From a virus (Duplodnaviria; Heunggongvirae; Uroviricota; Caudoviricetes): a stretch of 64,000 nt of DNA. The notes beneath the pieces are model-generated. The model did not search any database, was not told the origin of the DNA, and saw only the letters and a list, made by a program, of their open reading frames with translations. Shown piece after piece: positions 27,779 to 59,254 of this stretch. The DNA lies in the IMG/VR virus record IMGVR_UViG_3300045988_149498. The stretch is one strand, 5' to 3'. Every line of letters begins with the position of its first letter. Positions within the stretch are counted from its first letter, which is position 1. The position numbers and the translations under genes were made by a program.

Positions 27779-28012
27779 ATGGGAAAAATAACTTTTGTAG
27801 TCGAATTTGAGGATGGTAAAGAGCCACCTGTTAGCGCCAATCTTGATGTTGCTGGTGGCAGGCTTGTTTCGGTTCTATTTGGTGACTACCGAGATGATTT
27901 CTTCCAACCAGAAGAAGTTGATGTGGTGCGAGAGGCATTAAACGAGTTAAGTGTTGATAACGATGATGCTCATGCGGAAATCATCCAAAAAATGGAACTG
28001 CTAACTCACTAA
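27779..28012 (+). CDS. Small acidic protein, 77 aa
   Basis: Internal ATG of track ORF 27761-28012 directly after peptide stop. Confidence 0.4.
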   Translation: MGKITFVVEFEDGKEPPVSANLDVAGGRLVSVLFGDYRDDFFQPEEVDVVREALNELSVDNDDAHAEIIQKMELLTH

Positions 28013-28060
28013 ATTATCAATTATGGTGCTATCACCTACGACACCGAGAGAAAATTTATA

Positions 28061-28183
28061 ATGTCAAAAGTAAATGTTTTGATTTTTTCAGTAATTGTAG
28101 GTTTTGGTTTTTCTGCTGGAGTGCATATTTATATTACGTGGGAAAAAATCATCAACTACGTATGGAGTTGTTTTATTAAGTGA
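28061..28183 (+). CDS. 40-aa hydrophobic peptide (MSKVNVLIFSVIVGFGFSAGVHIYITWEKIINYVWSCFIK)
   Basis: AT-rich islet; single TM helix; stop 7 nt before next ATG. Confidence 0.3.
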   Translation: MSKVNVLIFSVIVGFGFSAGVHIYITWEKIINYVWSCFIK

Positions 28184-28190
28184 GGTAAGT

Positions 28191-28484
28191 ATGTGGAGAG
28201 GTAATAGTCATGGCAAAAGCCAGATGATACTTACCGAATATCAGTTTGACCATAAAACCAATAAATCACGTTCAGTATATTTGCTTCGGCACAATAGCCG
28301 CGTAAGGAATACCGTGCTGGAGCAAAATCTGACTGTTGAAATGGATAATTACGGGGGCTTCAAGCCAACAATTTCGCTTGATGATTTTCCTCGTGGTTTA
28401 AGCGAAAGAGAAGCAATGCTGAAATTAGCAGAATGGCTACAAAGATTAAGCATTGCTATTGAAGATAACTGGTCTGAACCTTAA
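28191..28484 (+). CDS. Hypothetical protein, 97 aa
   Basis: Internal ATG after GAGGTAAG within track ORF 28104-28484. Confidence 0.45.
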   Translation: MWRGNSHGKSQMILTEYQFDHKTNKSRSVYLLRHNSRVRNTVLEQNLTVEMDNYGGFKPTISLDDFPRGLSEREAMLKLAEWLQRLSIAIEDNWSEP

Positions 28485-28490
28485 ATTTAT

Positions 28491-28865
28491 ATGATGACAC
28501 TAAAACATTTTCTTGACCGCCCATTATGGGCGGCAGCCGCAGGCTATGACTTTAATTATATGGATTGCATGTCTTATACCGCCAATGCATACGACCATTC
28601 CTTCAGTCTGCTGTTTAATTCTTTAAGAATATTGCCGCAAACAGAAGTTGGAGAGCTTCATTTATGGCTATTGGGCTTTATCGCGGCTGGAGTTGGTATT
28701 GCTGTATGGCCTTTTATTTTCTGGCTGGTGGCTGTTGTAGTGTGGTTTAAGTGCAAGACGTACCGGAAAAAGTATTTCTTAGGTGATGGAATGACTGATA
28801 TTGCCAAAATGAACATTGAAAAATGGACTAAGGAATGTGAAAAGAAATGGCGCAAAAAGAAATGA
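28491..28865 (+). CDS. Membrane protein with two TM helices and Lys-rich tail, 124 aa
   Basis: Track ORF; LWLLGFIAAGVGIAVWPFIFWLVAVVVWF hydrophobic core. Confidence 0.5.
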   Translation: MMTLKHFLDRPLWAAAAGYDFNYMDCMSYTANAYDHSFSLLFNSLRILPQTEVGELHLWLLGFIAAGVGIAVWPFIFWLVAVVVWFKCKTYRKKYFLGDGMTDIAKMNIEKWTKECEKKWRKKK

Positions 28866-29527
28866 CTACTCTAACGACAGCATACTTACAGCAATTGGTA
28901 TTTTTTGCAGGCGAGGCTACTTGTCATCCTGACGCAAACTATTTATTGGAATTTGAGAGGTTAGCGTCACCCGGTATCGTTCTGGAACTGGCCCAACAGG
29001 TGCTGGCCTTGAGACAAAAAGAGCAACATGAAAGTAATACGTGTAGATTGAATTTTGAGCAGTGGCTGGAACAGCAACGCGGAAAAATCGATGTGGACTG
29101 TGGTTGTGTGTCTACTGAAACATTCATGCACTGGCTGCGGGTAGCTTACGAGGCTGGCAACTATCCGGATATTCCTGATAGTTCGGTGCCAGGGCCAGGA
29201 AAGGGCATCACCGGTGAACGTATCCGCATTAAACCGCATGTTTATCGCGAACTGGTTAACCGTCTCCACGATACAGCGATCAAGTGTGCGGGCACCCAGC
29301 AATTACGAGAAAGAATTAGCCGTGTTTTGGGCGACGTTATTACGCCAGATCATCATAAACAAGCCGAGAAAAGTGGCTTGGAAAGGTGTCACCTTGAGGC
29401 GGCATTAAACATTAAGCCGGGGCATACGCTTGGCATTATTGATGCACTATTGGTTCATAAGATGGCCAGGGCTTTATTGCCGCTGGTGGCTGAAAAGCAT
29501 GAGGCGGACCATGCCAACGAAAGCTGA
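28847..29527 (+). CDS. Hypothetical protein, 226 aa
   Basis: Track ORF overlapping neighbours at both ends. Confidence 0.5.
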   Translation: MAQKEMTTLTTAYLQQLVFFAGEATCHPDANYLLEFERLASPGIVLELAQQVLALRQKEQHESNTCRLNFEQWLEQQRGKIDVDCGCVSTETFMHWLRVAYEAGNYPDIPDSSVPGPGKGITGERIRIKPHVYRELVNRLHDTAIKCAGTQQLRERISRVLGDVITPDHHKQAEKSGLERCHLEAALNIKPGHTLGIIDALLVHKMARALLPLVAEKHEADHANES

Positions 29528-40780: not shown

Positions 40781-41731
40781 CTAATCAATAAATACACGGA
40801 ATGTCTCCAGCATCCCTTCAGGATCTTTATCCTCGTCACCTAATGATATTAGTCTTCTGGCAAGAAGTTTCACATCATCATCATCTTTGATGTAACCAAC
40901 CTGATCATTTTCAAAATAAATATCAATTATTTTTAGGATTTGCTCTTGTGTAAAGTGAGTGAGCTTTAATAATTTTGCTACAACTCGATGTGTTGTAGCA
41001 AAACTGCCAGAGTGTCGTAATTCATCTATAGTGAGATTAACTTCCATTTCCACCAAGTTACTAGCTTGAGGAAAGTGCTCGCCTATAAACTCTGATAAGC
41101 GGGAATAGATATGTGGTTCTGAATTTTTCTTTTTTTTCCACTCATGCTTCAAATATTCATTCATATCATCCTTTATAAAGGCACTTTTATAATCACCATC
41201 TTCAGTTATGATATATATATCCTCACCGTCTGGTATCGCTTTTAGCAAACATTCCCAATTAACTGCGTCACCATATGATTTATTTTTGCCAGGCGGGTTT
41301 CCAAGATCAAATCGAAGTTTCCCCTTATCTATTGTTTCATCATCAGCCTCTATTTTAGATGCTGCATCAAAAATCCTTTTAATTACAATATCGGCAGCCA
41401 AAGCCTCCTCTTTAAACAATTTCTGGATATCTGTAATAATTTCATTCTTTAACCTACCTGCTTCTATAACCTTATCATTAAATTGTGAATGCTTTTCATG
41501 TTGCCTAAAAATCTGGGGAAGCGCGGGCTTATAATCTTTTGTTATTTCCTTTATGGTTTCAGAGAGAACTTTAGAACGATTCCTCCAGAACTCATTCACT
41601 AAAAGCTCTGGTAGCCAAAGTTTTAAACGACCATATTGATGTAAGGCAAATACTTTATCCAGCTCATCTAGTTTATCTTTACCCATCCTGTAAAATTCCA
41701 AATATAGATTTGTATCAATAAAAACATTCAT
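40781..41731 (-). CDS. PIN-like nuclease-domain protein with C-terminal helical domain of unknown function (316 aa); candidate defence/abortive-infection effector
   Basis: N-terminus MNVFIDTNLYLEFY (canonical PIN motif), later GDAVNW and IITEDGDY acidic motifs; AT-rich; occupies the site where P1 has res-mod. Confidence 0.7.
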   Translation of the reverse strand: MNVFIDTNLYLEFYRMGKDKLDELDKVFALHQYGRLKLWLPELLVNEFWRNRSKVLSETIKEITKDYKPALPQIFRQHEKHSQFNDKVIEAGRLKNEIITDIQKLFKEEALAADIVIKRIFDAASKIEADDETIDKGKLRFDLGNPPGKNKSYGDAVNWECLLKAIPDGEDIYIITEDGDYKSAFIKDDMNEYLKHEWKKKKNSEPHIYSRLSEFIGEHFPQASNLVEMEVNLTIDELRHSGSFATTHRVVAKLLKLTHFTQEQILKIIDIYFENDQVGYIKDDDDVKLLARRLISLGDEDKDPEGMLETFRVFID

Positions 41732-53057: not shown

Positions 53058-53074
53058 ATTGCTCTAATTAATTT
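53058..53074 (+). promoter_or_regulatory. C1 operator ATTGCTCTAATTAATTT upstream of ssb
   Basis: 16/17 match to consensus, 20 nt before ssb GTG start. Confidence 0.65.
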
Positions 53075-53093: not shown

Positions 53094-53582
53094 GTGGCAC
53101 AACGCGGTGTAAACAAAGTCATCCTGATTGGTACCCTGGGGCAAGACCCGGAGATCAGGTATATACCAAATGGCGGCGCGGTCGGAAGACTAAGCATCGC
53201 AACGAATGAATCATGGCGCGACAAGCAAACGGGCCAACAGAAAGAGCAAACAGAATGGCATAAAGTCGTTTTGTTCGGAAAACTTGCTGAAATTGCGAGT
53301 GAATATTTACGAAAAGGTTCTCAGGTCTACATCGAAGGGAAACTTAAAACCCGTAAGTGGACAGATGACGCCGGTGTAGAACATTACACGACGGAAATTA
53401 TCGTCAGCCAGGGCGGCACCATGCAAATGATCGGCGCTCGCCGTGACGATTCACAGTCCTCAAATGGCTGGGGGCAATCAAACCAACCTCAAAACCACCA
53501 GCAATACAGTGGTGGCGGTAAACCTCAGAGCAACGCCAATAACGAACCTCCAATGGACTTTGACGACGATATTCCGTTTTAG
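53094..53582 (+). CDS. ssb: Single-stranded DNA-binding protein
   Basis: OB-fold N-terminus, Gly/Gln-rich linker and acidic tail DFDDDIPF; GTG start. Confidence 0.95.
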
Positions 53583-53620
53583 AGTTAACTTGTGAGTTAT
53601 TTGTAAATAGTTCATACACA

Positions 53621-53650
53621 GGCCCCTGTTAATACAGGGGATTTTTATTT
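53621..53650 (+). terminator. Rho-independent terminator after ssb
   Basis: CCCCTG-TTAATA-CAGGGG followed by ATTTTTATTT. Confidence 0.7.
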
Positions 53651-53830
53651 CTAGTAACTATAAGAGGTGTTAATTATTAATTGACAATCTTTAGTGTTTC
53701 GCGCACCTTGCAAGTATCCAATATTTACTGATTGTGGACGCATAAAGAAGATCCACAGCGTTACAAATTTGTATTTCTTTCTTCAGCAATTAAGCAGGCG
53801 ACTTGCTCTATCCTGCCCAAAGGAACACGT

Positions 53831-55186
53831 ATGACACACTGCAAAGAAAATACTTGGTATGAGCGTCAAGGGTACAATACCACCCGCCCGAATGAGATAA
53901 GGTCGGAGTATGAACGTGATCTTTCCCGGTTAATCCACTCTTCCGCTTTTAGGAGATTACAATCGAAGACGCAGGTGTTGGGATTGGGCGAAAGCGATTT
54001 CTACCGTACGCGGCTAACTCACTCTATGGAAGTAGCGCAAATTGGCGGCGGTATCTTGTCTCAGTTGTCTAAGCGCGATACAGATGAGGGGGGTAAATTC
54101 TTACCTGACCCAAGCCTGATGCAGGCTATCTGCCTTGCTCATGATATAGGACATCCCCCCTTCGGTCATGGTGGTGAGGTCGCACTAAACTACTGCATGA
54201 GATCCTATGGCGGCTTTGAAGGTAACGGGCAGACACTGCGTATACTCTCCAAACTGGATAAGTACACCGAAACCAATGGGCTGGATCCCACCCGTAGACT
54301 TATTTTAGGCGTACTGAAATATCCAGCAAGCTATTCAGAGGTCGTCAATGAGAGGGCTTACAGCCAGTTACAGCCAAGAAGCAATGAGTGGTTGTTTAAA
54401 TCATCCGAATTTAAGCCCCCGAAATGTTACCTGGACTCTGAGGAGAACACTGTTAGATTCGCACTCCAACCTTTTGATAGTGATGATGTTAAGTTATTCA
54501 AAACGGTAAAAACTACCGCGTTGAATAAGCACAAGAAAACAATATATAAAGCACTGGATACAACGATTATGGACTTGGCTGATGAGATATCCTACTCACT
54601 CCATGATCTTGAAGACGCAATTTCTCTGAAGATGATCGACAAAAAAATGTGGGAGGAGCACTTCGAGGACAAGTCCCATTTATTTGCAGCTTGCCAATGC
54701 GACTCGTTTAATCTAAAAGCCGATGATGTAGCTGAAAAACTGTTCGGCGAAAGTTATCTACGCAAGGAGTGCATAGGGACACTTGTTCATCTGATGATCA
54801 CTAGCGTTAAGCTTGAAGTGCAGAACTCTGATTTCAAAAGTAAAATTTTACGCTATAAAGTGGCACTTCCTGCCGCGGTAGAAGAGTTACGTAAAGCCAT
54901 TTTTGAGCTGGTTAGGAACAAAGTTATTCAGCACGAAAACGTCCAACTATTAGAGTTCAAAGGTCAGAAACTGATTGTGGAACTATTCAATGTACTGGCA
55001 AATGACCCAATACGTTTTCTCCCGACAGAAACTCGAAAGAAATATAATCAAGAGGAAGCAAAAGGTGATGATAAAAAAATGCGCGTCATTTGCGACTATG
55101 TTTCAGGCATGACAGATGATTACGCTACTCGACTGTATGAGAAAATATTTGTACCGAGAAAAGGCTCTATTTTTGATAGACTCTGA
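53831..55186 (+). CDS. dGTP triphosphohydrolase-family HD-domain protein (451 aa); candidate nucleotide-depletion defence
   Basis: ATG 6 nt after AAAGGAA; motifs RTRLTHSMEVAQIG and AHDIGHPPFGHGGE of the Dgt/HD family; AT-rich islet. Confidence 0.8.
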   Translation: MTHCKENTWYERQGYNTTRPNEIRSEYERDLSRLIHSSAFRRLQSKTQVLGLGESDFYRTRLTHSMEVAQIGGGILSQLSKRDTDEGGKFLPDPSLMQAICLAHDIGHPPFGHGGEVALNYCMRSYGGFEGNGQTLRILSKLDKYTETNGLDPTRRLILGVLKYPASYSEVVNERAYSQLQPRSNEWLFKSSEFKPPKCYLDSEENTVRFALQPFDSDDVKLFKTVKTTALNKHKKTIYKALDTTIMDLADEISYSLHDLEDAISLKMIDKKMWEEHFEDKSHLFAACQCDSFNLKADDVAEKLFGESYLRKECIGTLVHLMITSVKLEVQNSDFKSKILRYKVALPAAVEELRKAIFELVRNKVIQHENVQLLEFKGQKLIVELFNVLANDPIRFLPTETRKKYNQEEAKGDDKKMRVICDYVSGMTDDYATRLYEKIFVPRKGSIFDRL

Positions 55187-55353
55187 TCTTTTTCTATTAT
55201 ATAGTACGTAGCCGGGTTCCAGAACCGCATAAAATTAGATCTGGATATAATTCATTTAATTATCTGTTATATGCCAAACATAACGATATATAATAGTGGA
55301 TTAGATGTTACAACTTGACGCAGAATAAATAGCTTTTATTGGCGCATGATGCA

Positions 55354-55376
55354 AACCCCGCAATGAAGCGGGGTTT
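55354..55376 (+). terminator. Terminator hairpin between convergent islet genes
   Basis: AACCCCGC-AATGAA-GCGGGGTT followed by TT. Confidence 0.5.
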
Positions 55377-55393
55377 TAACTGTGGTAAATGAG

Positions 55394-55762
55394 TTATAAT
55401 CTTTTAATCAGGCTCTCAATATTAGTTGGTTCAAAGTAATGCTTATTAACCTCTCCATTTATGAGGAAACCGTCTTTTAGTAGTCGGTCTAGCTCACGCT
55501 CTGCTTCTTTGTTGAACATACCTGGATATATTCTCTTGTACAACTGAAATGTACCATTCATATTCCTGTAAGCATTCTCAGCAATTTCAATGGATATTTC
55601 ATTTCCGGCGTTAAATACAGGAATGAATATCTCAAGAATATCATTCTTTAACTTCTGTTTAAGTTTCTTTTTTTCAACAATATTAGAATAAAAGATACCT
55701 AAAAAAAATGTGCAGATACCAGGAAGCCAATTATTAACGAAAACCTCAGACAAAGCGTCCAC
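55394..55762 (-). CDS. Small membrane-anchored protein of unknown function, 122 aa
   Basis: GTG start 9 nt after GGAG; N-terminal TM helix WLPGICTFFLGIFYSNIV; AT-rich; convergent with dGTPase gene. Confidence 0.5.
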   Translation of the reverse strand: MDALSEVFVNNWLPGICTFFLGIFYSNIVEKKKLKQKLKNDILEIFIPVFNAGNEISIEIAENAYRNMNGTFQLYKRIYPGMFNKEAERELDRLLKDGFLINGEVNKHYFEPTNIESLIKRL

Positions 55763-55968
55763 TATCTTACTCCAGAGTTAAGATTGATTCTCATAACGCA
55801 CAAACTCCGTTCAAGGCGATTTTTATATTACAAACTATACATAAACGCCGATCAATATCTCCAGATTTTGTGTGCCTGTGCATGAATATGCACTAATCAT
55901 AATCGACCAGAACTTCCGTTAATCGCTAAACTCGAAGGATTCTAGCCACATAGACGATCTGTTAGTAT

Positions 55969-56277
55969 CTAATATACAAACTGATCCACATGATCACCCA
56001 AATCATCGTCGTCGTCCTCATCGCCACCATCTACTGCTGGCCAATCAACAAACCAGCCAGCGTAAAGATGCAGCGTTCGGAGAACATCACTTGCGGGAGC
56101 ATCAAGGGTGTTAACGAATCCCATATAGCTATTGGGATTTGCCCCTGCTATGGCTTCAGCGATCATGTCCTCGGTAATGTCACCGGAGATAATGCTTAAA
56201 CGCCCGGAAACTTCTTCATTATCATCAAATTCGATAATGGCATCTCCGCCTAATGGCGCTGCGATTTTAATCTGCAT
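55969..56277 (-). CDS. Highly acidic small protein (102 aa), last gene of darA operon
   Basis: Start overlaps ddrB stop; C-terminal DGGDEDDDDDLGDHVD; very low predicted pI. Confidence 0.55.
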   Translation of the reverse strand: MQIKIAAPLGGDAIIEFDDNEEVSGRLSIISGDITEDMIAEAIAGANPNSYMGFVNTLDAPASDVLRTLHLYAGWFVDWPAVDGGDEDDDDDLGDHVDQFVY

Positions 56278-59254
56278 TATTTAGCTCCTTTGCCACACCT
56301 AATAACAGTTCCAGCAATCCGTCACCATTCATCAGTGATGCGGCAGCGGCCTCTTTGTCATGATACAACTGAAGAGCCATAGAGAATACTTCCGTTGCTG
56401 ACGTTTTGGAAATAGTCGGTGATTTCTGCCGAATTTTCCCGGTGTTACTTACTGAGGCTGGCGGGTATACCTTCGCCATATAAATATTACTCAATCGAGA
56501 TCTGAAGCACCATTCAGGCTTGCCACGCCCACCGATATTAACGAAAGATGGCTTATCCCCTTCAACATTGGCCTTCAGGAATGACCGGGCTTTCTCTAAC
56601 AAACCAGGGTTACTGTACTCAAGATGATGACCCAGCTCGTGCCACAGTGCACTTGCATTTTCATCGTTCAAATTGACAGCAACAACACCATTAAGATTTG
56701 CATATGCCCTTCCCTGGTGGTGAACCACCTTTGATAAGGTCGAAATTTTACCGCCGGTCAGGCGATAAATATCAGCAAGTTCCTTGCGCAGGTCTATCCC
56801 ACCATTCTGTCCAGCGCGGGCTTCTTCCACTTCTTCCGTGATAAAAGAGTCGGCCCACTCAAGAGCTTTTTCTTCAGATACGGATGAGTTTGCGATCGCA
56901 CTGTTCATGGCAGATAACACTTTCTCGTGGACCGAACCCATACTTCGCTGATTCATTTGCCAGCGTGTCTGCGGGTTATATGAGAATCGCTTAAGTAGTT
57001 GGTCAAGCTGCTCAAGTTCTTCTTCACTGACATACCTTTTAGCCTCACCAATAATGCCAGGGAGAATATTGCCGTTAGGATTAAACGCTCGCGAAAGGAA
57101 GAGTTTCAGTGCCCCCATGCCCTCCGATGCTTCAATATCACCAATAACCCGGTTAACAATGGCCGCACTCTTCGGATTAGCATCCGCCAACGCTCTGGTT
57201 ACGATTTGCAGGGACGATACGACCTCACGCTGCATATCAGTCCTGATCTCATCAATAAACTCTGGCGTTATGCCGTGCTCTTTAAGGATATCCCGGCCTT
57301 CCGCCGTTACCCCATCGATATCACCGACATGTTTATTAACACGACTTTGCAATGCCTTAAATGCCTTCAGAATTCCACGGGCATCATCCGCTTTACTAAC
57401 GGCCTTCCTGAATGCTGTCAAGAAGTCTGAGTTAACCTCATTTTGTTGATCGGCCCACTGAATGGAGGCATCTTTCATCTCGTCCAGAGTCAGATCACCC
57501 AACGCGGTATGGTCTGTGAATATGAGCGACAACCTCTGAACCATTTCTGCCAATGGTGATGCCGAATGCGCCGCGCTAAGGAATGCTTTCACCCTGGTTG
57601 GGCGAATGGAAAACCAGTCAATAGCTGGTGGCATATCTCCGTTTTTTATCGCCTGCGCTATCTCGTCAAAGCCATCGCGCCCAAGGGAGGATGCGTGATT
57701 TAACAAGCCGCGAAGTAACGAATTGCTGATACCGAATAATCGGCACCATTTTTTCACGTCGGCAACAGGCATTCGAACAAAATGCGCAAGCACTTGTACA
57801 AGCTGTTCATCATGGGGATCTGTACGGGAAAGCAGCCTGATCAGATGAATAATGTCTTTGATGCCGGATGCCCGATGTAATAGCAAACTGGTATATGGAG
57901 CAACACCGTTGTAACTACCGCCGGAAACGGACTCGAAAAGACCGCCGGATATCCCTTGCATGCCTTCGTTTTCCAGTTCCTGAGACACCTGGCGAAGGAT
58001 ATCCTGTAACGACACATCACCACCGCCAAACATATCCCCCAGCGCCTGGCCCTGGTGCTGTAACTCATCATTTATACGTTGTGCCATCAATTTAAAGGCG
58101 GTGGCCATACGCTTCGCGCTACGGTTATTCGCGACGATGAACAACGCGAGAGCTTTCACTTCCGGGGCTGTTTCGCTGAACATATCCCCCTGAGCAATAA
58201 CATCGGTAATATGTTGGCCTGACTCCTTCGATTGCCTTACCAGGTCTACCGCATCTTTCAATGCCGCCAGCGCCTTTTTATCGAGGCTATCCGCTGTTTC
58301 AATGCCATCAACGATAGTTGTCACAGCCTGCTTGTGCGCTTCTCCTGATAAAGCCTGCATCTGGACAAAATCATTGGCTGCCGCATTAAGCGCCGTCAGA
58401 ACATTACGCATATCCGGATCAGGTTCTTCTGCAACCATCCTTACCAGGCGCGCATCCTTATATGCCTTGGCAAAGATCGCGTTTTGTATACGGTCTACAA
58501 GTTGCCGTGTTGGTCGCCCATCTTCCGTTACAAGGCCAGCAGCCTGTGTGGCACCAACTTGCGTCATGAATCCGCGGATAAACGCGTCATTACTGCGGCT
58601 AAGCAGATCTCCGCTTTCTGATGGGTTAAACAGCGCCATCATCGCCGGAGTTATGCTGTCGGCATCAACAAAAGCCTTTTCACTGGCTGCCATTTCCTGA
58701 AGATCAGAAATATTTGAGTCCTTGGCAAACTGAACGCGGTCAACCTTAGTTAACCGGCGGCGCACCAGTACCGGAGCCGCCATTGATTCAACCTTTTCAG
58801 GTCGTATGCCGAATTCGGTCGCATGATCAATCAGGTACTCACGATACCGATCCGCATTGCCGTCCTGATAGGCTTTGATGATCCCCATGGTCCGTCCATT
58901 ACCTGACTCAACGGCATTGTCCTCACCAATTATCGGCGCTCCATGGCTGGATAAACCGGAATCGGTAAGCTGAGCAGGCCGCAAATCCTTGGATATCTGG
59001 TTAACCTGAAGAAGGCTGGATGCGCGGGTCCGGTCGCGCGGCTGAAGTTCCTGGGGATAGTCCGGATTAATTTTCCCGTCCAGAGTATTGGATACCAAAA
59101 GAGCTGAGGCATCGACGATATCAAACGCTGTTTTTACCTCGTCTCCCTTCGCTGTCACCACATACGAAACCCGCCCGAAATCGGGCAGGTTTTTTAGCAG
59201 CTCGATCAGCGTTTCTATGCTGGTGGCCATTACCACCTGATCGCTTAAGCTCAT
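56267..59254 (-). CDS. ddrB: DdrB-like large protein of the darA operon, 995 aa
   Basis: Size and operon position (after darA-ddrA) as in P1; HExxH-like segment LWHELGHHLE. Confidence 0.6.
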   Translation of the reverse strand: MSLSDQVVMATSIETLIELLKNLPDFGRVSYVVTAKGDEVKTAFDIVDASALLVSNTLDGKINPDYPQELQPRDRTRASSLLQVNQISKDLRPAQLTDSGLSSHGAPIIGEDNAVESGNGRTMGIIKAYQDGNADRYREYLIDHATEFGIRPEKVESMAAPVLVRRRLTKVDRVQFAKDSNISDLQEMAASEKAFVDADSITPAMMALFNPSESGDLLSRSNDAFIRGFMTQVGATQAAGLVTEDGRPTRQLVDRIQNAIFAKAYKDARLVRMVAEEPDPDMRNVLTALNAAANDFVQMQALSGEAHKQAVTTIVDGIETADSLDKKALAALKDAVDLVRQSKESGQHITDVIAQGDMFSETAPEVKALALFIVANNRSAKRMATAFKLMAQRINDELQHQGQALGDMFGGGDVSLQDILRQVSQELENEGMQGISGGLFESVSGGSYNGVAPYTSLLLHRASGIKDIIHLIRLLSRTDPHDEQLVQVLAHFVRMPVADVKKWCRLFGISNSLLRGLLNHASSLGRDGFDEIAQAIKNGDMPPAIDWFSIRPTRVKAFLSAAHSASPLAEMVQRLSLIFTDHTALGDLTLDEMKDASIQWADQQNEVNSDFLTAFRKAVSKADDARGILKAFKALQSRVNKHVGDIDGVTAEGRDILKEHGITPEFIDEIRTDMQREVVSSLQIVTRALADANPKSAAIVNRVIGDIEASEGMGALKLFLSRAFNPNGNILPGIIGEAKRYVSEEELEQLDQLLKRFSYNPQTRWQMNQRSMGSVHEKVLSAMNSAIANSSVSEEKALEWADSFITEEVEEARAGQNGGIDLRKELADIYRLTGGKISTLSKVVHHQGRAYANLNGVVAVNLNDENASALWHELGHHLEYSNPGLLEKARSFLKANVEGDKPSFVNIGGRGKPEWCFRSRLSNIYMAKVYPPASVSNTGKIRQKSPTISKTSATEVFSMALQLYHDKEAAAASLMNGDGLLELLLGVAKELNNAD

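Follow-up and report, generated by a model that had tools for sequence, protein, structure and literature searches.

A predicted dGTPase of the anti-phage clade in the ssb-hxr cargo slot of a P1-like phage-plasmid

Introduction

Defensive dGTPases have been described in the form of Sp-dGTPase of Shewanella putrefaciens CN-32 and Ec-dGTPase of E. coli G177 (Tal et al., Nat Microbiol 2022; preprint 10.1101/2021.04.26.441389). SpdGTPase is a hexamer that alone hydrolyses dGTP in vitro and provides strong defence against T7 (PMC12265719), and this defence is lost in its D101A mutant (Tal et al. preprint 10.1101/2021.04.26.441389). Two of the six dGTPases cloned by Tal et al. gave no protection (preprint 10.1101/2021.04.26.441389), so that homology alone is no guarantee of the phenotype. 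The housekeeping Dgt is a core chromosomal gene with no preference for defence islands (Tal et al.), while in the Clover system the dGTPase CloA is octameric and inactive alone (PMC12265719). In E. coli, dGTPase has also been counted among the defences that P1-like phage-plasmids commonly carry (bioRxiv 10.1101/2025.09.12.675607). In P1-like phage-plasmids, the slot between ssb and hxr has been published as the variable "region 2" of low GC (PMC9603915), occupied by isaA-IS1-isaB and replaceable in its content (PMC9603915; PMC6906374).

The DNA considered here is a stretch of 64,000 nucleotides from the viral record IMGVR_UViG_3300045988_149498, referred to below as the window. Its islet at 53583-55968, together with the flanking backbone, is made up of the following features.

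53058-53074, plus strand: C1 repressor operator (Ossb/Op21 equivalent) upstream of ssb, part of the P1 backbone, with one mismatch to ATTGCTCTAATAAATTT
53094-53582, plus strand: ssb, the backbone gene that borders the cargo slot on the left; Pfam SSB at 1.3e-39, 99% identical to P1 ssb
53583-53830, plus strand: left spacer of the islet; it has a terminator-like hairpin with a T-run behind ssb and includes the untranslated dGTPase leader
53831-55186, plus strand: dGTPase gene, 451 aa, with HD and HD_assoc domains; dGTP triphosphohydrolase of the anti-phage clade, as judged from its sequence
55187-55393, no strand assigned: AT-rich spacer between the convergent genes, holding a GC-rich hairpin at 55356-55378
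55394-55762, minus strand: gene B, 122 aa, with a GTG start and a GGAG ribosome-binding site; hydrophobic N-terminal helix and helical C-terminal domain
55763-55968, minus strand: DNA ahead of gene B, reaching to the right end of the islet; its ~60 nt next to the gene (55763-55822) are conserved with the upstream region of the Salmonella homologue
55969-56277, minus strand: hxr, the backbone gene that borders the slot on the right and closes the darA/ddrA/ddrB/hxr operon; PHROG 2292, with 95% identity to the hxr of P1
56267-59254, minus strand: ddrB, as an open reading frame call

The Islet and Its Slot

The islet fills exactly the gap between the stop codon of ssb and the stop codon of hxr. 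The homology to both P1 and P7 ends inside the ssb stop codon (53580/53581) and restarts at the hxr stop (55969/55970), and the left spacer (53583-53830) has no similarity to either of them. A sequence-only reading of the window had described the segment as an AT-rich islet in the place where P1 carries isaA/IS1/isaB, and had proposed a comparison of the composition of 53.6-56.0 kb with its flanks. The P1 annotation does show isaA/IS1/isaB between ssb and hxr, and the segment is compositionally foreign, with a GC content of 0.398 (0.482 in the window, 0.493 in ssb and 0.495 in ddrB) that is distributed unevenly over the dGTPase gene (0.434), gene B (0.331) and the spacers (0.35-0.37). No terminal repeats, insertion sequences or att signatures were found at the islet ends, where only short repeats at the chance level occur. 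The Rfam scan of the islet returned only a sub-threshold GIR1 match (19 bits, with the gathering score at 100), with no match in the spacer 55187-55393.

Of 5426 complete E. coli genomes, 64 contain this islet at an identity of at least 99%, and 473-484 have the hxr-ddrB backbone. Thus, the islet occupies ~13% of the P1-like backbones; its conservation in all P1-like genomes, which the earlier reading had named as refuting evidence, was not observed. The same slot contains isaA/IS1/isaB in P1, the porin gene nmpC in P7, the porin gene ompD in JL22 and unknown ORFs in 813R1, and it holds other genes in SJ46 as well. The window also has a PIN_12 gene in the res-mod slot.

The nucleotide matches of the two islet genes lead to different places. 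From 53773 to 55190 the match, at 79%, is to a chromosomal E. coli island and includes the last ~58 nt of the left spacer, which are conserved with the chromosomal dGTPase locus; from 55395 to 55822 it is to a Salmonella island (L006-L009), at 80% in blastn. Judged by this similarity, the islet is a mosaic, the nucleotide homology of its two genes being from different donors.

The dGTPase

Both the intact 451-aa gene of the Dgt type and the convergent 122-aa reading frame, which had been read from the letters of the sequence, are present as described, and the two motifs quoted as Dgt-type stand in the protein at aa 58-71 (RTRLTHSMEVAQIG) and aa 103-116 (AHDIGHPPFGHGGE). The ORF call stretches the dGTPase frame to an upstream TTG at 53732; the ATG at 53831 is preferred because it is preceded, 6 nt before, by an AAGGAA site and because the RefSeq protein and the chromosomal homologue start at the same position. 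In the 451 residues, Pfam recognises PF01966 HD (aa 61-134) and PF13286 HD_assoc (aa 345-437). The catalytic residues H64, H104-D105, H113/E116 and DLADE at aa 248-252 (aspartates 248 and 251) are all present, and the active-site residues align with identical residues of PDB 9P8W, the SpdGTPase of Shewanella putrefaciens, in which D101 corresponds to D105 here. The match to 9P8W is full-length (aa 16-451, 532 bits).

The classification by Pfam and defence models and the placement relative to housekeeping Dgt, both put forward earlier as checks, gave the same answer. The protein scores 573 bits against the cut-off of 400 in the curated NCBIfam model NF041026 antiphage_dGTPase, covering profile positions 1-425 of 425, 565 bits against 383 in NF003701 and 493 bits in the PADLOC dGTPase model PDLC02374, whereas it falls below the cut-off of every housekeeping Dgt equivalog (PRK04926, 143 vs 405; PRK03007, 217 vs 385; PRK01096, 173 vs 439). 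On these profile scores, the window dGTPase belongs to the described anti-phage dGTPase clade. The chromosomal E. coli dGTPase of the locus L004 is 80.7% identical to it at the amino acid level, and the gene encoding that L004 enzyme matches the E. coli G177 construct labelled "Validated experimentally" at 99% identity over its first 399 nt.

The window protein is the identical, full-length ORF of WP_033551022.1, and it agrees in 449-451 of 451 residues with the copies that were compared, those of L002, L021 and L024. RefSeq names this accession "anti-phage deoxyguanosine triphosphatase", and the homologue list of Tal et al. contains 451-aa entries of E. coli and E. albertii with the same gene span of 1356 nt. 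Together with the 2025 preprint on P1-like cargo, both precede the present analysis, and the novelty implied by the sequence-only reading did not hold; the feature is confirmed as real, correctly read and already known. In the literature searched, no experiment on the WP_033551022.1 allele and no paper naming WP_033551022 were found, and the search by exact protein accessions and PHROG identifiers returned nothing.

The phage vB_EcoM-673R5 is the one phage-collection record with the islet, and its dGTPase is annotated as two CDS. The split arises from two 1-nt deletions in the homopolymer runs G6 and C6, and the stretches equal to lyz and ddrB of the window are likewise each annotated as several CDS in this record, which together point to sequencing error. 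Selection against the dGTPase in virions was considered as the cause of the split gene and was rejected because of the same homopolymer indels and fragmented lyz and ddrB regions.

Gene B

The 122-aa protein had been described as membrane-anchored. It does begin with a hydrophobic helix, followed by a KKKLKQKLK stretch, but the hydrophobicity of this helix is only moderate, its best 19-residue Kyte-Doolittle mean being 1.39 and below the usual 1.6. The protein has no family or domain in Pfam, NCBIfam or PADLOC and corresponds to PHROG 26730, of unknown function; its AF2 model (pLDDT 75) predicts a helical C-terminal domain. There are 34 homologues, and the alignment profile searched against 1.84 billion representatives returned 14 proteins or clusters at 50% identity and no remote family.

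The homologues of gene B recur in cargo and defence hotspots of mobile elements, where their immediate neighbours are varied single-gene defence enzymes, as the dGTPase is in the window: beside a bSEFIR and an AbiV-like HEPN protein in Yersinia kristensenii, beside a 5'-nucleotidase matching the PADLOC candidate PDC-S08 in three Marinomonas loci, and near restriction-type genes in Vibrio, Salmonella and a metagenome contig. By tblastn, 15 non-P1 loci showed no dGTPase within 5-6 kb of the homologue, and the gene calls of another four (L026-L029) list none, which makes 19 non-P1 loci in all; reciprocally, the chromosomal dGTPase loci have no gene B alongside. In the plasmid L024 the dGTPase is intact (449/451 aa), and gene B is broken by indels. 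A reading of L024 as a variant islet with a diverged gene B was rejected, since it is the same islet, 99% identical in nucleotides, in which gene B has indels.

The sequence-only reading had allowed for either an independent small gene or a regulator; the lack of a dGTPase near its homologues favours independence, and by this genomic context gene B would be an autonomous module and not a conserved partner of the dGTPase. It is conceivable, although rather unlikely, that gene B represents a new family of small, probably membrane-associated proteins acting in single-gene defence or superinfection exclusion, or as a generic accessory of single-gene defence enzymes.

Transcription Signals

The terminator-like hairpin at 53623-53640, with a T-run after ssb, is the only such site called in 53400-56300. 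A terminator shared by the two convergent genes had also been proposed. A real GC-rich hairpin does lie between them at 55356-55378 (dG of -20.1 and -18.1 kcal/mol on the two strands), but it is placed 170 nt past the dGTPase stop and 16 nt past that of gene B, has a tail of just four T on the plus strand and was not called by the terminator scan. A two-way terminator, nearest to gene B, is plausible.

No convincing sigma-70 site came out of the promoter scan ahead of the dGTPase gene, and the scan as a whole gave fewer sites than the shuffle expectation. The C1 operator motif has 14 matches in the window against 0.28 expected by chance, none of them inside the islet (the nearest is the operator at 53058-53074), and the search for the Lpa late-promoter motif found none inside the islet either.

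Interpretation

The islet is very probably acquired cargo, with a single-gene anti-phage dGTPase and with gene B as a separate module. It would have been gained horizontally into the known variable slot of P1-like phage-plasmids. The window dGTPase would cleave dGTP to deoxyguanosine and triphosphate, probably as a hexamer by analogy with SpdGTPase; when dGTP is gone, an incoming lytic phage would be unable to copy its DNA, and the lysogen, hence the resident prophage-plasmid, would be protected. The gene is probably expressed in the lysogen from its own host-type promoter, apart from the lysis-lysogeny circuit of P1, because the islet has no C1 operator and no Lpa motif and because the gene is placed behind the ssb terminator. 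The pairing of gene B with the dGTPase appears to be confined to P1-like elements, and the enzyme would not need gene B to function. A constitutive dGTPase should also be a burden on P1's own lytic replication, and the sequence contains nothing showing how that replication escapes it. What the sequences themselves show is the layout of the islet, the family of its enzyme, the intact active site, the mosaic origin and the spread among genomes; that the window allele is active and excludes phages, is expressed in the lysogen and is tolerated when P1 itself replicates is inferred.

A different reading would join the two genes into one system, in which the 122-aa protein would serve the dGTPase as regulator, anchor or sensor, as CloB restrains CloA. 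The genes do occur jointly in all 52-64 P1-like copies, with an identity of at least 99%, a single intergenic hairpin is common to both, and in the three Marinomonas loci gene B homologues adjoin another candidate defence enzyme that breaks down nucleotides, the 5'-nucleotidase matching PDC-S08. However, the genes are convergent and come from separate nucleotide donors, no dGTPase lies within 5-6 kb of the gene B homologue in any of the 19 loci outside P1-like elements, and gene B has no nucleotidyltransferase or other recognisable domain; the 81%-identical chromosomal dGTPase, of the type validated alone on a plasmid, occurs without gene B, SpdGTPase is active alone in vitro, and L024 keeps its dGTPase with a disrupted gene B, all of which leaves a joint system very unlikely indeed. 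The service of the enzyme to the phage-plasmid's own physiology, through the dNTP pool for maintenance and replication fidelity or through slowing host replication, is very unlikely as well. It would agree with the position of the gene directly after ssb, a replication gene, and with the tie of housekeeping Dgt to genome integrity (Tal et al., discussion), but a terminator separates ssb from the dGTPase, the scores for all housekeeping equivalogs failed, as exemplified by PRK04926, and the closest characterised relatives are defence enzymes. Moreover, the slot holds unrelated accessory genes in other P1-like elements, and the dGTPase must be dispensable for the element because it is absent from ~87% of the P1-like backbones. 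Hardly credible is the view that the gene is decaying or inactive and persists as a functionless passenger: the two CDS of vB_EcoM-673R5, which could be taken for such decay, go back to the homopolymer deletions in a record fragmented in its lyz and ddrB regions too, while the window copy is full-length, identical to WP_033551022.1 and intact in its catalytic residues, and the copies of L002, L021 and L024 are nearly or fully identical to it.

Read as acquired anti-phage cargo, the locus is a clean example of a temperate phage-plasmid with an exchangeable cargo slot that contains a defence gene acting by nucleotide depletion, and fits the established picture in which prophages and phage-plasmids shield their hosts, and hence themselves, from rival phages. 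As the exact islet is found in ~1% of complete E. coli genomes, it may bear on the host range in phage therapy. Tal et al. 2022 and the 2025 survey of phage-plasmids already cover all that the locus offers conceptually.

Comparison with Known Systems

The window enzyme shares with the dGTPases of Tal et al. the HD and HD_assoc domains, a similar length (~430-460 aa), the HD motif and the H/E dyad, and, like them, it would be a single-gene system in a mobile-element hotspot. It differs from them in being located on a P1-like phage-plasmid, and not in a chromosomal island or restriction-modification operon, and in being known here from sequence; from the chromosomal E. coli type it is distinguished as a separate allele, with a different and shorter loop at ~aa 80-90. 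The housekeeping Dgt of E. coli (PDB 4X9E/6OIY) belongs to the same superfamily of HD-domain dNTP triphosphohydrolases with a common catalytic motif, but its alignment with the window protein is limited to the N-terminal ~110 residues (88 bits). T7 gp1.2 is an inhibitor of the housekeeping Dgt, and T7 mutants in gene 5.7 or 0.7 escape Sp-dGTPase.

The combination of a defence dGTPase effector with an adjacent second gene recalls Clover, which consists of the dGTPase CloA and the nucleotidyltransferase CloB (PMC12265719). However, the match to CloA is weak and only N-terminal (82-89 bits to 9P8S-V), and, whereas CloB is an adjacent Pol-beta-type nucleotidyltransferase encoded in the same operon, gene B is convergent, encodes 122 aa with no nucleotidyltransferase motif, is helical in its model and is not co-conserved with the dGTPase. 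The octameric Vdg of Vibrio (PMC13519002; PDB 9VWA/9VWC) is likewise an anti-phage dGTPase of the HD superfamily, but it is far more distant, matching in two stretches at 152-156 bits against its 402-aa chain, and the window protein groups with the SpdGTPase type. With the variable region 2 of P1 the islet has in common the position between ssb and hxr, the low GC and the replaceable content; what differs is the content itself, which is isaA-IS1-isaB in P1 and the dGTPase with gene B here.

Identity of the dGTPase

The 451-aa protein encoded in the islet between ssb and hxr (53583-55968) is very probably a stand-alone nucleotide-depletion defence, expressed by the phage-plasmid in the lysogen and excluding other phages. 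The prophage-encoded exclusion proposed in the sequence-only reading was judged to be right, given a score of 573 bits with the NCBIfam model NF041026 'anti-phage deoxyguanosine triphosphatase' (curated cut-off of 400 bits), while all housekeeping dGTPase equivalogs remained far under their cut-offs (E. coli Dgt model: 143 vs 405). That the gene serves the physiology of the phage-plasmid itself is accordingly disfavoured. The protein contains the Pfam domains HD and HD_assoc, scores 493 bits with the PADLOC dGTPase model and carries both Dgt-type motifs cited in that reading, at aa 58-71 and 103-116. Its top solved-structure match is 9P8W (532 bits, aa 16-451), the hexameric SpdGTPase of Shewanella putrefaciens from the work of Tal et al. 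(Nat Microbiol 2022; preprint 10.1101/2021.04.26.441389), which hydrolyses dGTP without a partner and provides strong T7 defence (PMC12265719), whereas the alignment with E. coli Dgt is limited to the N-terminal residues (about 110). The view of the gene as a dead passenger is likewise disfavoured: no metal ligand is missing, the H/E dyad is intact, and D101 of Sp-dGTPase, whose substitution D101A leads to loss of defence (Tal et al.), is represented by D105.

A chromosomal E. coli relative shares 80.7% protein identity with the islet dGTPase, and its gene has, over the first 399 nt, 99% identity with the E. coli G177 construct, experimentally validated in the list of Tal et al. The homologue table of the same work includes E. 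coli and E. albertii entries with a 1356-nt span and 57.2% identity to Sp-dGTPase; the islet gene also spans 1356 nt, and we infer that these entries are the same allele.

Structure and regulation of the islet

The ORF listing confirmed the islet coordinates and gene calls of the sequence-only reading.

Features of the islet and its borders (ORF calls; hairpin at 53623-53640 from the terminator scan)
ends at 53582, ssb
53623-53640, terminator-like hairpin 3' of ssb
53831 (ATG)-55186, +, dGTPase ORF, 451 aa
55356-55378, intergenic hairpin between the convergent genes, stable on either strand
55394-55762, -, gene B ORF, 122 aa
56277 down to 55969, -, hxr

The segment is AT-rich, as had been noticed, with a GC content of 0.398 against 0.482 in the whole window and 0.49-0.50 in ssb and ddrB, and drops to 0.33 within gene B. 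The P1/P7 homology breaks off within the ssb stop codon and is resumed at the hxr stop codon, so that the islet occupies the entire intergenic slot, where P1 annotation does place isaA/IS1/isaB, in agreement with the sequence-only reading. The terminator proposed to be common to both genes was partly borne out, as a stable hairpin lying, however, near gene B only and with a weak T-tail.

Two modules make up the mosaic islet: the leader and dGTPase (53773-55190), with a 79% match to a chromosomal E. coli island adjoining yjcB, and gene B with 60 nt upstream (55395-55822), with an 80% match to a Salmonella island. The remaining spacers had no match among the sequences compared, no terminal repeats or IS remnants marked the islet ends, and the Rfam scan of the islet revealed no family. 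The chromosomal validated-type dGTPase of E. coli is located beside yjcB-pdeC-soxS (L004; L005 1339-8308) in an island with a QueC-like 7-cyano-7-deazaguanine synthase, PfkB kinase, nitroreductase/dehydrogenase, 8-oxoguanine glycosylase, Dam-type methylase and an AbrB/MazE antitoxin-like gene; the island is possibly a cluster for guanine modification or defence.

The C1 operator consensus has 14 matches within the window, one of them 5' of ssb (53058-53074) and none inside the islet; the P1 late-promoter motifs are located 5' of pro and lyz, with none in the islet, and the consensus promoter scan gave no clear sigma-70 site upstream of the dGTPase. The lack of these signals at the islet suggests that the dGTPase is expressed independently of the P1 circuit.

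Gene B and its neighbourhoods

No family was assigned to gene B by Pfam, NCBIfam or PADLOC, the sole assignment being PHROG 26730 of unknown function. Its homologues number 34 in a set of 5.8 billion proteins (Salmonella, Enterobacter, Rheinheimera, Marinomonas, Vibrio, Yersinia), the profile search found just 14 clusters among 1.84 billion representatives, and KLKNDILEIFIPVFNxG forms the near-invariant core. The structure model (pLDDT 75) consists of a long N-terminal helix and a small helical bundle; the membrane anchoring suggested earlier is only partly supported, the hydropathy of the helix being marginal for a membrane span.

The convergent gene might form with the dGTPase a two-gene system in which its product acts as the regulator. 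This is disfavoured: no dGTPase occurred within 5-6 kb of the homologues at any of 19 non-P1 loci (15 by tblastn, four by called genes), and at the loci examined the gene was always preceded by a gap of 96 nt or more and had its own ribosome-binding site. Gene B is, by these genomic criteria, an autonomous module and not a conserved dGTPase partner; of the two options left by the sequence-only reading, independence is favoured over regulation.

The homologues are consistently found in mobile-element defence hotspots: in Y. kristensenii (L028 2499-5399), directly 3' of an AbiV-like HEPN gene and bSEFIR (417 bits); at three Marinomonas loci (L012 4889-6396; L026; L027), directly 3' of a 5'-nucleotidase matching the PADLOC candidate PDC-S08 (391 bits). 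Nearby genes encode Mrr/HNH nucleases in Vibrio, an Eco57I-type enzyme and an antirestriction function in Salmonella, and, on a metagenome contig, a type III Res, integrases and a RelA_SpoT protein. Two Yersinia elements have different cargo separating a giant LPD/MuF polyvalent protein from the homologue, which thus borders a variable slot.

Variant copies and other possible cargo

The E. coli plasmid pRHB09-C18_2 (L023, CP057937.1) is 100% identical to window 40000-64000 apart from a 2004-nt group II intron (locus 13582-15585) with ltrA and Rfam D1-D4 and domain V/VI matches. The intron is inserted within the ssb stop codon (53580|53581), the exact left islet junction, and turns the stop TAG into TGA, so that Ssb is the same with or without splicing. 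In vB_EcoM-673R5 (L001 4089-4160, ON470615.2), the dGTPase annotation is split in two by a pair of 1-nt deletions, which fall in G6 and C6 homopolymer runs. They are probably sequencing errors, since the stretches corresponding to lyz and ddrB are likewise broken into several CDS each in that record, which documents the recovery of an islet-carrying element as a phage. Another plasmid copy of the islet (L024 4468-4881, NZ_CP087567.1; 99% identical) has an intact dGTPase (449/451 aa) and a gene B broken by indels, for which the annotation gives a 137-aa ORF whose ends are altered. In NZ_CP032890.1 (L021 7195-7892) and about five similar plasmids, the match stops at 55762 because an IS1 copy abuts the gene B start codon, and rearranged P1 morphogenetic genes follow in place of hxr-ddrB; this is IS1-mediated remodelling at the slot where P1 has its own IS1.

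Between mat and lxc/darB, in the slot that P1 uses for res-mod (type III R-M), lies a single AT-rich gene (40781-41731, -; GC 0.38) for a 316-aa PIN_12/DUF4935 protein, whose C-terminus has weak similarity to the PADLOC candidates PDC-S34 and PD-T7-3; it is possibly a second defence cargo. Two small ORFs (28104-28484 and 28491-28865, +) of the AT-rich block 28001-29000 (GC 0.39) have no Pfam or PADLOC family.

Distribution and relation to known systems

At an identity of at least 99%, the islet was found in one phage record, in 53 PLSDB plasmids (E. coli, E. albertii, E. fergusonii and one Cronobacter) and, always plasmid-borne, in 64 of 5426 complete E. coli genomes; the neighbouring hxr-ddrB backbone is present in 473-484 of these 5426 genomes, which puts the islet on about 13% of P1-like elements. 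The slot holds the porins nmpC in P7 and ompD in JL22, and unknown ORFs in 813R1.

P1 transcription uses the host polymerase, and this might be one way in which P1 avoids triggering its own dGTPase cargo: on the evidence of T7 escapers located in genes 5.7 and 0.7, Tal et al. proposed a link between the defence by Sp-dGTPase and phage interference with the host RNA polymerase.

The feature is real and already known: the ssb-hxr slot of P1-like phage plasmids has been published as a region of low GC, 'variable region 2' (PMC9603915; PMC6906374), the identical RefSeq protein WP_033551022.1 (100%) is named 'anti-phage deoxyguanosine triphosphatase', the published homologue list of the family probably includes it, and dGTPase has been noted as P1-like cargo, among the defences most frequent on E. 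coli P1-like phage-plasmids (2025 preprint, bioRxiv 10.1101/2025.09.12.675607). Some novelty resides in gene B only.
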